Positions 25,728 to 48,925 of a stretch of 64,000 nt of DNA are shown in pieces. The stretch is taken from IMG/VR virus record IMGVR_UViG_3300034073_003276; one strand, 5' to 3'. The translations under genes and the position numbers were made by a program. Numbering within the stretch: position 1 is the first letter of the stretch; each line of letters begins with the position of its first letter. The notes beneath the pieces are model-generated. The model was not told the origin of the DNA and ran no database searches. It saw only the letters and a list, made by a program, of their open reading frames with translations. The stretch comes from a virus. Lineage: Duplodnaviria > Caudoviricetes.

Positions 25728-25801
25728 TACCCGCAGTCGGATTCGAACCGACACTGGAGGAGTTTTAAGCTCCCTATCTCTGCCTGTTGGATTATGCGGG
25801 C
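25728..25801 (-). tRNA. trnL: tRNA-Leu(TAA)
   Basis: acceptor GCCCGCA/TGCGGGT, anticodon arm GGGAG-CT TAA AA-CTCCT, T-arm GTCGG TTCGAAT CCGAC; short variable loop; no encoded CCA. Confidence 0.85.
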
Positions 25802-25805
25802 AAGG

Positions 25806-25879
25806 TGCAGGTTGTGGGGATCGAACCCACCTTAGGCGAATTATGAGTTCGCTGCTTTCAACCAGAGAGCTAAACCTGC
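25806..25879 (-). tRNA. tRNA with CAT anticodon (elongator Met or Ile2)
   Basis: acceptor GCAGGTT/AACCTGC, GCGAA-CT CAT AA-TTCGC, GTGGG TTCGATC CCCAC; G1-C72 pair argues against fMet. Confidence 0.85.
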
Positions 25880-46085: not shown

Positions 46086-46796
46086 TTATACCACATACTT
46101 CCAAACATATCCTTTATGTTTTTTCCTTTTATTTTGACAAACTAAAGTTATTTTGGAAGTTGAGGCGTTATTTTTTTCTGCGGCAATGGTCATACTATCA
46201 TAAACTTCAATTAAATTTCCATTAGTATCATATTTTCCTATTTTTTTAATTTTATGAGAGGTTCTTTTATATGAAGATATTTTTGATAGTGGTTGATTTT
46301 CAAAAGTTTTCCATTGAAACCCACCACAAGTTTGATATTCTCCTCTTATCACGGCACCAATGCCTTTACAATCTTTACCAAAAACATCATAAGAAGCATC
46401 TCTACAACTTTCATAAACATTGACTAGATTTCCATCCAAATCATAACAAGCAACTTTTTTAGAATTGCTTTGTTTAATTGCTTGTTTCCATCTATCCCCG
46501 TGCTTTTTATTGAGAAATCCACCACCGTCGCCTCCATTAGTCATATTATAATATGGTTTCAAAAGAGAGACATAATACATTTCTCTTTCATTTACTTTAT
46601 TTTCAAAACACTCTTCTATAATTTCAAATACAAAATTTTCAACACCATACTTTCTCATAGCATAATATAATTTTGTATTTCTTACTTTTGAATGAGATTT
46701 ATGCTGTCTCCATCTTACTTTTGGTCTTTTGGATTTACCAATATAAATCTGCTCATTAAGAATATTTGTTATTTTGTAAATGTAGTGTGAAACCAT
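46086..46796 (-). CDS. GIY-YIG homing endonuclease with NUMOD1-like domains
   Basis: YIYKITN...YIGKS; YNMTNGGDG; two YD..GNL..VY.S repeats; TATAAATA at 46828-46821. Confidence 0.85.
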   Translation of the reverse strand: MVSHYIYKITNILNEQIYIGKSKRPKVRWRQHKSHSKVRNTKLYYAMRKYGVENFVFEIIEECFENKVNEREMYYVSLLKPYYNMTNGGDGGGFLNKKHGDRWKQAIKQSNSKKVACYDLDGNLVNVYESCRDASYDVFGKDCKGIGAVIRGEYQTCGGFQWKTFENQPLSKISSYKRTSHKIKKIGKYDTNGNLIEVYDSMTIAAEKNNASTSKITLVCQNKRKKHKGYVWKYVV

Positions 46797-46832: not shown

Positions 46833-47585
46833 TTAGGGACTCAAACGAGCACGATGTAGTCTCTTTTCTTCATAATACTTCCAAACATTTGGAGACCACT
46901 TTTGAAGTTCTGGAGCAATTGCGTCACAAAGTGCTTGAATCTCAATTTGAGCATCAAGTTTAGAACGAAGGTCCATAAAGTGAAGAACAGAACGAAGGTT
47001 AAATGAAACTACAAAGTTTTGCCGAATTGCCTGAGGAAGATAATCACGAATATGCTCTTCACACATACCTTGCTCATAATACTCAGCATACTCCTCACAC
47101 TCACTCAGAATGCGCTCTAACTTGCGTTGTCGGTTCTCTTCGGTCCATTCATACTTCTTACCCTTACGATTGGTGTAGAATCCCTCAGGACGCACATAGA
47201 AGACATCTTCGACATCAAGTTCACGCTTAGCAACCTTTACAACTCTCTTTCCAGTATATCGTTGCGACTGAACATCCCAAGAAGTGCCAATTCGATGAGT
47301 TCTTGCCTGAACGATTACATTATGAACAAAACCAGATACCGAAAAAGTAATTCCGGGATGCTCTAATGGACCCCAGTGACCTCTTTCATTTGCGAGTAGT
47401 TGCTCTACAATCCACTCACCACATTCCTGAGGACTGGGGACCTTAACTTCGTGAATTGGTACTTCGGAATAATCACCTTTTCCTGCCTGCCAAATAACTT
47501 GTTCCGGAATCGGATAACATTGAAGTCTAACAACTTCAAGTCTTTTATCAAGTTCAAGAAGGTCTTTTGCTTTAATAGGTTTCAT
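46833..47585 (-). CDS. thyX: flavin-dependent thymidylate synthase
   Basis: HWGPLEH, QARTHR.G.S.DVQSQRY, N.RS..HF.DLR. Confidence 0.92.
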   Translation of the reverse strand: MKPIKAKDLLELDKRLEVVRLQCYPIPEQVIWQAGKGDYSEVPIHEVKVPSPQECGEWIVEQLLANERGHWGPLEHPGITFSVSGFVHNVIVQARTHRIGTSWDVQSQRYTGKRVVKVAKRELDVEDVFYVRPEGFYTNRKGKKYEWTEENRQRKLERILSECEEYAEYYEQGMCEEHIRDYLPQAIRQNFVVSFNLRSVLHFMDLRSKLDAQIEIQALCDAIAPELQKWSPNVWKYYEEKRLHRARLSP

Positions 47586-47950: not shown

Positions 47951-47982
47951 ATAAAAAAAGGAGGGAATCAATCCCTCCTTTG
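47951..47982 (-). terminator. intrinsic terminator
   Basis: AAAGGAGGGA-TTGAT-TCCCTCCTTT followed by a T run on the minus strand. Confidence 0.8.
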
Positions 47983-47991
47983 AATTTTTTT

Positions 47992-48075
47992 TTACTTAGA
48001 CAACCACTGAATATACAATGAAAGTAAAGTAATAAATGCGACAGACGCAACTGAAATTTGTGCGATGATTAGCAT
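47992..48075 (-). CDS. 27 aa single-TM micropeptide
   Basis: MLIIAQISVASVAFITLLSLYIQWLSK; ATG overlaps the upstream TGA. Confidence 0.55.
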   Translation of the reverse strand: MLIIAQISVASVAFITLLSLYIQWLSK

Positions 48076-48170
48076 CACTTTGCTCCTGCGTTTGCTAGCA
48101 GTGCTTGGTGACGACGTTGCTCTTTTTGCTTTTGCTCTTTAATGAGTTGAAGCACATTGAGTTTTTTCAT
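48075..48170 (-). CDS. 31 aa basic micropeptide
   Basis: MKKLNVLQLIKEQKQKEQRRHQALLANAGAK; AAGGAGG RBS inside the upstream ORF. Confidence 0.6.
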   Translation of the reverse strand: MKKLNVLQLIKEQKQKEQRRHQALLANAGAK

Positions 48171-48307
48171 CACTTATGACCCTCCTTTACAAACTTAACA
48201 CCACGATAGGTTTCGTTGTATTGTTGGGGTTGTTGCATCATTTGCTGTTGATACTCAAGACGCTTTTGAGTATCATACTCTACGCCTCTGTATACGACTT
48301 TAGACAT
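48170..48307 (-). CDS. DUF4278-like 45 aa protein
   Basis: two YRGV motifs (VYRGVEY, TYRGVKF); strong RBS TAAGGAG. Confidence 0.75.
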   Translation of the reverse strand: MSKVVYRGVEYDTQKRLEYQQQMMQQPQQYNETYRGVKFVKEGHK

Positions 48308-48339
48308 TAGGTTTTCTCCTTAGTTTTTAAGTTAAAGAG

Positions 48340-48437
48340 CGTTCCTTCAGTCGGCGTTTGCGTCCGCTATTTGAGAATAGCGAATGAACGTTCCGTTCCG
48401 CGTCGGCTTACTTCCGTCTGGTTTTCCAGATGAACGT
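48340..48437 (-). ncRNA. tandem glutamine-riboswitch-like aptamers (glnA / Downstream-peptide family)
   Basis: unit 1 CGTTCA-TCTGG/CCAGA-CGGAAGTAAG-CCGAC-GCGGAACG; unit 2 CGTTCA-stem-CGCAAACG-CCGAC-TGAAGGAACG. Confidence 0.75.
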
Positions 48438-48443
48438 AAGGTC

Positions 48444-48472
48444 ATTATAGACCCTTTCATCGTATATATCAA
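48444..48472 (-). promoter_or_regulatory. sigma70-type promoter
   Basis: TTGATA-17 nt-TATAAT; predicted +1 at ~48437 coincides with the aptamer 5' end. Confidence 0.8.
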
Positions 48473-48480
48473 TCTTATTT

Positions 48481-48496
48481 TGTAACTTTTGTTACA
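48481..48496. promoter_or_regulatory. NtcA binding site
   Basis: TGTAACTTTTGTTACA is a perfect TGTA-N8-TACA palindrome 8 nt upstream of the -35 element. Confidence 0.7.
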
Positions 48497-48556
48497 ATTT
48501 TTAAAAATCTTAATAGTCAAAAAAATTGCCGGGATTTTTTCCCAGCATTTTTGAAA

Positions 48557-48925
48557 TCACTTTCGCTTTTTCTTTTGAGGTTTTTGATACCCCCATAACT
48601 TAGGATTAACTCTACCATACCCAAAGTCAATACTCTTTAGATTTTCACGAAACTTATCCCAATACATATCAAATAATTTAATTCTTCCACCACGAGTCAA
48701 GTCAAAACAAATCTTATCGTCAATCATATACTTGATAATATAAGCATCATTTGGAGCATCCTTAGTGCATACTTCAGCATAAGATCCATCCTGAATTAAA
48801 ATTTCACAACCATAACGTGCTTTACAGGTTTCTTTTTCTGCTGGTGTCCAAGAGTCCATATGCTTTTCTGTACTTTGTGCTCTTTCAATTACATCACGAA
48901 GTCTGCTCACGAACGTCCTCCCCAA
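48557..48925 (-). CDS. conserved cyanophage-type hypothetical protein (start uncertain)
   Basis: 122 aa; D..RG.R..LFDMYWD..GR..PKLW. Confidence 0.65.
   Translation of the reverse strand: MGRTFVSRLRDVIERAQSTEKHMDSWTPAEKETCKARYGCEILIQDGSYAEVCTKDAPNDAYIIKYMIDDKICFDLTRGGRIKLFDMYWDKFRENLKSIDFGYGRVNPKLWGYQKPQKKKRK

Follow-up and report, generated by a model that had tools for sequence, protein, structure and literature searches.

That glnA RNAs occur in tandem was noted in 2010 (Weinberg 2010, PMC2864571), and a survey published in 2022 lists 157 doublets and 4 triplets, filed as pseudo-cooperative (Sherlock 2022, PMC9481103). In cyanobacteria the aptamers precede genes for DUF4278/IF17-like proteins and act as ON switches (Klahn et al. 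2018, PMC6212724); in cyanophages, a 2017 survey found only two glutamine riboswitches (PMC5473149). Here we describe such an element in a stretch of 64,000 nucleotides (nt) of the IMG/VR virus record IMGVR_UViG_3300034073_003276 (Duplodnaviria; Caudoviricetes), hereafter called the window, in which a 98-nt leader on the minus strand (48436-48339) carries two glutamine-aptamer-like units. The element appears to be a member, in a cyanophage, of the known class of tandem glutamine riboswitches, and the fold with the best support is not serial but nested and strand-swapped. On balance we favor the reading that this leader is one composite glutamine sensor with a nested fold, a translational ON switch for three short open reading frames (ORF1 to ORF3), and not two aptamers in series.

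Two aptamer classes provide the terms of comparison, glutamine-I (RF01739) and glutamine-II (the Downstream-peptide motif, RF01704). The solved ligand pocket, as set out by Huang et al. (2019, PMC6698751), comprises a C1:G40 pair, a G18>G2:C39 triple and a long-range pair; the glutamine-I structure is that of Ren et al. (2015). The long-range, or linchpin, pair joins the base after the CG of the linking strand to the base after GAACG, and is C:G in glutamine-II with an equivalent in glutamine-I, for which loop E is also described (PMC6698751). The Rfam consensus of glutamine-I (ACGG...GAACGC) implies a G:C linchpin. Glutamine-II RNA crystallized as a strand-swapped dimer, and a version in two pieces binds glutamine (Huang et al. 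2019, PMC6698751), so an exchange of halves is physically possible.

Unit 1 (minus strand, 48436-48394) consists of CGUUCA, a 5-bp hairpin, CGGAAGUAAG, GCCGAC and GGAACG, and unit 2 (minus strand, 48390-48340) of CGUUCA, a 9-bp hairpin, ACGCAAAC, GCCGAC and UGAAGGAACG. Both are where an earlier note, made from the letters of the window alone, had placed two glutamine-aptamer-like units, and the viral origin that it proposed agrees with the IMG/VR record, with the presence of thyX, glutaredoxin and GIY-YIG endonuclease genes, and with the relatives of the sequence among the Kyanoviridae. In a permissive Rfam scan of positions 48150-48600, unit 1 matched RF01739 with 26.3 bits (48436-48394; E 1.4e-3) and unit 2 with 29.1 bits (48392-48336; E 2.3e-4). 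Both scores lie below the gathering score of the family (35 bits), which is why a scan of the whole window at gathering thresholds returned two tRNAs only. Glutamine-II was rejected as the identity of the element: RF01704 gave 13 bits (E 1.1) against a family score of 33 bits, and no complementary strand for the P2 pseudoknot is found downstream in the window.

The leader region folds better than its shuffles (z = -3.4), and the two-unit arrangement is shared by all 11 sequenced cyanophage records examined. The paired-unit element is genuine and not a chance resemblance, because the arrangement recurs in these 11 phages and in at least 151 distinct elements overall; alignment of homologues, a check named in the earlier note, thus found both units conserved among relatives. 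Among the related loci retrieved we found no arrangement of three units. The record of phage S-CREM1 annotates the element as a single 99-nt "glnA" riboswitch, and the published Rfam match over the whole 99 nt scores 44.0 bits (PMC9964418), more than either unit by itself. A scan of bacterial and archaeal genomes with an over-loose pattern gave at least 120 chance matches, with no real element among the matches listed.

From its 5' end the leader reads CGUUC, A, P2a (5 bp), CGG, AAGUA, A-GCCGACG, C and GGAACG; then, after a GAA linker, CGUUC, A, P2b (9 bp), CGC, AAA, CGCCGAC-U, GAAG, GAACG and C. From that final C on, the order is CUCUUUA, ten bases, UAAGGAG, eight bases and an AUG at 48307. 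In the nested model, the 5' half of unit 1 (CGUUC, P2a, CGG, AAGUA) and the 3' half of unit 2 (GAAG, GAACG, C) would together make up a complete three-way junction of the glutamine-I (glnA) type. The P3 stem of this outer junction would be formed by the two junction strands that contain GCCGAC, and with P3 included the outer shell would fit the glutamine-I consensus at each conserved position. At the far end of P3 would lie a second three-way junction with a circularly permuted core, in the order P3 strand, CG, GAACG, linchpin G, two loop bases, CGUUC, A, P2b, CGC, AAA, P3 strand. A plausible origin would be that an aptamer was duplicated in tandem and that each of the two P3/loop-E regions then lost its inner half, leaving the strand-swapped fold.

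The pairing was judged by comparison of at least 151 distinct elements, drawn from three exact-pattern scans of IMG/VR and the 11 sequenced phage records. Four bases were followed. In unit 1, a comes right after the CG (G48414) and b right after the GAACG (G48393); the corresponding bases in unit 2 are c (C48360, after its CG) and d (C48339, after its GAACG). Scan patterns 1 and 2 left a, c and d free, and pattern 3 fixed c. Across the units, a and d can pair in all 151 elements (G:C in 55, C:G in 96) and b and c in 142 (G:C 136, C:G 4, A:U 1, U.G 1), with every element that has C at b having G at c. Within the units, a:b is paired in 95 of the 151 (56 mismatches) and c:d in 93 (58 mismatches). 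The contrast holds in a MAFFT alignment of 30 short-form elements (A1), where each cross-unit pair is present in 30/30, with changes on both sides, and each within-unit pair in 21/30. The same P3 sequence types carry both states of a:d (22 G:C and 21 C:G in the commonest type), and no discordant combination of a and d occurs among the 151 elements, which disfavors pure hitch-hiking of the two bases. On a tree built from flanking sequence, a and d change seven times each.

These counts bear directly on the arrangement that the literature depicts, namely two independent aptamers, each with its own P1 and its own glutamine, acting on one platform with a steeper or two-threshold response. Each unit alone does score on RF01739, and the majority type (C, G, C, G at positions a to d) would permit within-unit linchpins too. 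The window, however, has mismatched within-unit linchpins, G.G and C.C, a failure that it shares with about 37% of its relatives. Loop E is likewise divided, AAGUA occurring solely in unit 1 and GAAG solely in unit 2, so that only the cross-unit combination gives the glutamine-I consensus. We regard independent aptamers in series as improbable.

The P3 helix brings together the junction strand of unit 1 (A-GCCGAC-X) and that of unit 2 (Y-GCCGAC-U). Its innermost pair X:Y is G:C, U:A or A:U and is never mismatched, its outermost pair is A:U, G:C, C:G or G.U, and in a short version (GUCG with CGAC) three bases have been lost jointly from both strands; with such compensatory changes the helix survives through 33 sequence types. 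For two aptamers side by side, the J1:J2 helix would need a double pseudoknot. Folding points the same way: without guidance, RNAalifold predicts from the 30 aligned sequences the outer P1, P2a, a hairpin of the inner GAACG and CGUUC, and P2b, and the minimum free energy (MFE) fold of the aptamer in the window has this same nested topology. The secondary-structure energy is -22.9 kcal/mol for the nested fold and -18.7 for the side-by-side fold, which is thus 4.2 kcal/mol less stable. Two pairings that came up were rejected. One, in the MFE fold, would join the CGC linking strand to the GCG that precedes the inner GAACG; that position, however, varies (G, U, A) with the base before the GCCGAC of unit 2 and not with the constant C. 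The other, CUUAC:GUAAG in the leader, is unconserved among relatives and falls upstream of where transcription is predicted to start.

The first CGUUC had been noted earlier as able to pair with the last GGAACG, and it is exactly this pairing that the comparative data favor. Where the earlier note suggested a switchable nested fold, the nested fold fits the covariation best, but as a conserved fold and not as a demonstrated switch alternative; its description of two dissimilar aptamers holds in that both units are aptamer-like, but they are not two complete sensors, with one loop-E strand each and mismatched linchpins. The units are dissimilar, in the nested model, because one aptamer is split around a permuted second core. 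A truly bistable RNA would alternate, co-transcriptionally or with ligand, between the nested fold and a side-by-side (or unit-1-only) fold, the exchange being the regulatory step. The identical P1 sequences across all four strands would allow such an exchange, and unit 1 emerges first and can close on itself. Indeed, a search of the 89-kb record from which the window comes gave an RF01739 match above the cut-off (48438-48385, 38.8 bits) that corresponds to unit 1 closed by a second GAACG. That GAACG arises from the GAA linker, however, and the linker was seen in three elements only (the window, L050 and L127), for which reason we treat this closure as incidental; the within-unit pairs, moreover, show no covariation. 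A bistable switch has little probability in our estimate.

The inner core of the nested model has no loop E and yet retains all the nucleotides that contact glutamine in solved structures; C1, C39/C58, G40/G59 and the linking-strand G, as named in PMC6698751, are conserved in both cores. We infer glutamine binding by either core and occupancy of the inner site. A further possibility, which we hold only tentatively, is a two-site, strand-swapped sensor with a permuted core set in the P3 of a canonical one, in which occupancy of the inner site would pre-organize P3 and the outer junction; on that proposal all the "tandem" cases recorded since 2010 would be interleaved, and cyanophages would use the element to time IF17-like proteins to host nitrogen status.

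Alternatively, the fold could be nested with the outer glutamine-I aptamer as its sole ligand site, the inner GGAACG/CGUUC and P2b being an extension of P3 that serves as scaffold, folding guide or carrier of cargo (the hairpin module, or a small ORF in relatives). The missing loop E would suit this, as would a 3-nt loop that appears tight for a linchpin pair, the insertions of 140-200 nt that P2b takes in 54 of the 151 relatives, and the nine elements in which b and c are mismatched (A.C in 6, U.C in 3; mostly one lineage with AAGU/AAGC linkers) while the remainder of the core is intact. Ruff et al. (2016, PMC5066625), citing Ames and Breaker (2011), likewise report that tandem glutamine riboswitches bind non-cooperatively in vitro. 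A spacer hairpin, however, could vary freely, and the inner core shows as little variation in its CGUUC, GAACG and linking-strand CG as the outer one does: GGAACG, 2-7 nt and CGUUCA were found in 109 of 112 elements located through the outer parts alone, so that their conservation was not imposed by the search. The b:c pair also shows compensatory changes (to C:G in four elements and A:U in one), and glutamine-II binds its ligand without loop E as well. We consider a single outer site unlikely.

Several of the facts above weigh against our preferred reading of one composite sensor, namely the b:c mismatches, the reported absence of cooperativity and the 38.8-bit match, and there are others. 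The basis is wholly computational. All four P1 strands (CGUUC and GAACG, two each) are invariant in relatives, so their partners are assigned from the two linchpin pairs, P3, the divided loop E and the folding energies. P3 consists of eight positions, of which six are Watson-Crick pairs and two are conserved mismatches (C.A and A.C), and it is absent from the RNAalifold prediction. In two of the three database scans the inner strands were fixed by design. On the flank-based tree, three well-supported independent pairs of elements differ in a, and all are concordant with d, but with three pairs a sign test cannot reach significance (p = 0.25); a and d, both lying in one small module, could partly travel together by recombination. 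Finally, we found no description of a nested layout for a tandem glutamine riboswitch in the literature covered, in which Ames and Breaker (2011) and Ren et al. (2015) figure only as cited by others, and a prior description is possible.

The tandem riboswitches of the literature and the element of the window are very probably the same class. In both, only a few nucleotides, and no platform, separate two aptamer-like sequences; the published cases are described as aptamers in series ("pseudo-cooperative," with no benefit identified), whereas covariation here points to cross-unit halves and one shared P3. Glutamine-I RNAs such as the leader of gifB, which encodes IF17, have the CGUUC/GAACG P1, the P2 hairpin, the ACGG linking strand, the AAGUA/GAAG loop E, P3 and the G:C linchpin in common with the window. 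The gifB leader is also upstream of a DUF4278 gene, and in both leaders the Shine-Dalgarno (SD) sequence is sequestered by bases that start at the linchpin C. The differences are that P3 of glutamine-I is a 3-bp hairpin, whereas that of the window would be a long-range helix bearing a permuted second core, that each half-unit here falls under the Rfam gathering score, and that the element is virus-encoded. Glutamine-II resembles the inner core in having the same ligand pocket, no loop E and a C:G linchpin, and its strand-swapped dimer and two-piece binding are a precedent for a site built from separated halves; unlike the window, it folds as an H-type pseudoknot, with a P2 to which sequence 3' of GAACG contributes. 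The tandem glycine riboswitch, too, has two homologous ligand cores, one platform and inter-domain contacts, but its aptamers are complete domains in series joined by tertiary docking, with no interleaving or permutation of secondary structure.

Tandem glutamine riboswitches are a textbook multi-aptamer arrangement of unknown purpose. If true, the nested and permuted architecture changes how they should be modeled, probed and annotated, and would give a rare example from nature of a riboswitch whose core is circularly permuted and of a ligand sensor that swaps strands within one molecule. If all tandems are interleaved, it would be understandable that no benefit of placing aptamers in series has been identified. 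The position of the halves under the Rfam threshold in an ordinary genome scan may also explain why the 2017 survey had only two cyanophage cases; at least 151 elements are gathered here.

Downstream of the aptamer, C48339 doubles as the outer linchpin base and as the first base of a 7-bp hairpin (48339-48333 with 48322-48316) that buries the SD sequence of ORF1. No U-run follows this hairpin, and control is therefore probably at translation. Binding of glutamine would stabilize the outer P1 and the G48414:C48339 pair; formation of that pair would pull C48339 out of the anti-SD:SD hairpin, which would lose about 2.9 kcal/mol with it, and the freed SD would turn on translation of ORF1 and of the coupled ORF2 and ORF3. 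The direction is probably ON, by analogy with the Synechocystis gifB leader. In the clade of the window itself (d = C), 19 of 21 distinct leaders pair their SD core with the 13 nt that directly follow P1, compared with 16% of shuffles. In marine leaders with d = G, sequestration of the SD by the bases right after P1 shows no excess (16 of 54, against 31% of shuffles), so the platform model is supported for the clade of the window alone.

ORF1 has a below-threshold match to Pfam DUF4278 (E 0.0017, 19.1 bits) and matches phrog_5049 with E 1e-10; of the equivalent ORFs of relatives, 36 of 39 match DUF4278 (best E 1.8e-13), and homologues make up 272 protein clusters in metagenomes. Many homologues in public gene calls (P0001-P0005 and others) are 62-78 amino acids long, compared with 45 here, and apparently start inside the riboswitch; these are probably N-terminal over-extensions by gene callers through the leader. 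Pfam and PHROG searches gave no family match for ORF2, and a PHROG search gave none for ORF3. Segments of ORF2-like peptide in relatives stand after the YRG ORF or are fused to it. In L093, L104, L121 and L210 the ORF2 peptide (LNVLQLIKEQ...) is fused behind a single YRG motif or is the first ORF after the riboswitch. The small proteins encoded beneath the riboswitch appear to be assembled from shuffled modules. The finding points to phage genes for DUF4278/IF17-like micropeptides whose translation would be tied to the host glutamine pool during infection, with a possible effect on host glutamine synthetase.

The features of the module, all of them on the minus strand of the window, are collected in Table 1.

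Table 1. Coordinates of the predicted riboswitch module and its surroundings, in transcript order
Feature	Position	Strand	Basis
Intrinsic-terminator-like hairpin with T run at the end of the upstream gene, bounding the module on its upstream side	48527-48547	-	8-bp stem, 5 GC pairs, T-rich tail
NtcA-like box TGTA-N8-TACA, perfect extended type	48481-48496	.	sequence; just upstream of the -35 hexamer
Sigma-70-type promoter, TTGATA-17 nt-TATAAT, 11/12 matches	48444-48472	-	near-consensus
CGUUC, putative outer P1 5' strand, partner 48344-48340 in the nested model	48432-48436	-	invariant in relatives; paired with last GAACG by RNAalifold and MFE
P2a hairpin, UCUGG AAAA CCAGA	48417-48430	-	all 5 pairs change on both sides among relatives
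Linking strand 1, CGG; G48414 is linchpin base a, partner C48339	48414-48416	-	a:d Watson-Crick in 151/151; 30/30 in alignment A1
AAGUA, loop-E 5' strand, in unit 1 only	48409-48413	-	sequence; Rfam alignment to RF01739
Putative P3 5' strand (AGCCGACG), partner 48356-48349	48401-48408	-	pairing kept in 33 sequence types
GGAACG, 3'-type P1 strand of the putative inner permuted core; GAACG partner 48390-48386	48394-48399	-	local hairpin in RNAalifold and MFE
3-nt loop GAA; G48393 is linchpin base b, partner C48360	48391-48393	-	b:c counts, 151 elements
CGUUC, 5'-type P1 strand of the putative inner core	48386-48390	-	conservation without search anchoring; folding
P2b hairpin, 9 bp (UUCGCUAUU CUCA AAUAGCGGA), sequence-conserved module	48363-48384	-	covarying pairs (4 change on both sides); unique in the window
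Linking strand 2, CGC; C48360 is linchpin base c	48360-48362	-	linchpin counts
Putative P3 3' strand (CGCCGACU)	48349-48356	-	compensatory changes
GAAG, loop-E 3' strand, in unit 2 only	48345-48348	-	sequence; Rfam alignment
GAACG, putative outer P1 3' strand	48340-48344	-	RNAalifold, MFE
Anti-Shine-Dalgarno strand CUCUUUA; first base C48339 is linchpin base d	48333-48339	-	7-bp hairpin with 48322-48316 in MFE fold
Shine-Dalgarno region UAAGGAG of ORF1	48316-48322	-	sequence, folding
ORF1, 45 amino acids, two YRG motifs, DUF4278/IF17-like small protein (phrog_5049)	48170-48307	-	AUG at 48307
ORF2, 31-32 amino acids, lysine/glutamine-rich	48075-48173	-	ATG at 48170 overlaps ORF1 stop (UGAUG); AAGGAGG upstream
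ORF3, 27-28 amino acids, hydrophobic putative micropeptide, overlaps ORF2 stop	47992-48078	-	coding status from position only
Terminator-like hairpin (10 bp) and T run; downstream boundary of the module	47957-47981	-	

Upstream of the aptamer, the promoter spacing predicts a transcription start near A48437, one base before the aptamer. The center of the NtcA-like box is about 51 nt before this predicted start; in NtcA-activated promoters the box is typically at -41.5. GTA-N8-TAC is not enriched across the window (12 observed, about 10 expected), and an NtcA-like box is found upstream in 60 of 82 related loci, in 41 of which it starts 58-61 nt before the first CGUUC. The TGTA-N8-TACA box suggests a possible NtcA input that, at this unusual distance from the promoter, could be of either sign.

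The -10 box (TATAAT) is flanked by an inverted repeat, AAGGGTC ... GACCTT (48438-48456, minus strand). Inverted-repeat arms of at least 5 nt occur within the last 30 nt before the aptamer in 69 of 81 distinct relatives, compared with 19% of shuffles, and their sequences vary by lineage (GGTCT/AGACC, TGTGTTA/TAACACA, GGTATG/CATACC), in a pattern that resembles hairpin covariation. Were some transcripts to begin further upstream, the repeat could give a 5' stem-loop directly next to the outer P1; failing that, it would be a promoter feature at the DNA level.

In the metatranscriptome libraries of three studies (freshwater, aquatic and outdoor), contigs span 48081-48413, covering the ORFs and most of the riboswitch. 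They come mostly from relatives (88-99% similar), and their loose ends show further variants of unit 1 (GGACGGCGG type); a single low-depth contig (n = 1; 48399-48656) crosses the promoter. As such contigs show no start, strand or level, and DNA carry-over is possible, they are at most a weak hint of transcription.

The hairpin of P2b, UUCGCUAUU-N4-AAUAGCG(A/G)A, is conserved in sequence beyond what its structure requires. This 9-bp module sits in P2b in 39 of the 151 elements and in P2a in 15, and in L043 it is nested within a longer P2a, which suggests a recognized module (a protein site or a tertiary contact) that moves between P2a and P2b. The window has the short-hairpin form of P2b; in the 54 elements with the long insertions (L001, L002, L003, L008, L009, L011 and 48 further loci), P2b encloses a short gene (49-66 codons) where the others have a short loop. 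For 49 of them, the AUG of this gene lies in the 5' strand of P2b and its stop, U(G/A)A, at the P3/GAAG junction, so that the linking strand and P3 of the aptamer encode the C-terminal residues, D-A-K/N-(A)-D. The predicted proteins share two cysteines and the motif ...ELxE...C.WDA.D.

The 89-kb IMG/VR viral record that is the source of the window has a CheckV completeness estimate of 36%. Among DNA matches the nearest are cyanophages of the Kyanoviridae, some from lakes, reservoirs and estuaries (S-SRM01, DSL-LC02/03, S-CREM1) and others marine, such as S-PM2. The module is flanked by genes for a DUF6433 protein, glutaredoxin, ThyX and a GIY-YIG endonuclease. The thyX gene lies at 46833-47585, and directly downstream of it is a GIY-YIG/NUMOD homing-endonuclease-like gene (46086-46796, minus strand). 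A homing-endonuclease gene beside thyX is a typical mobile insertion of T4-like phages. The two tRNA genes of the window are adjacent, at 25728-25879 on the minus strand, and score 53.1 and 50.1 bits.

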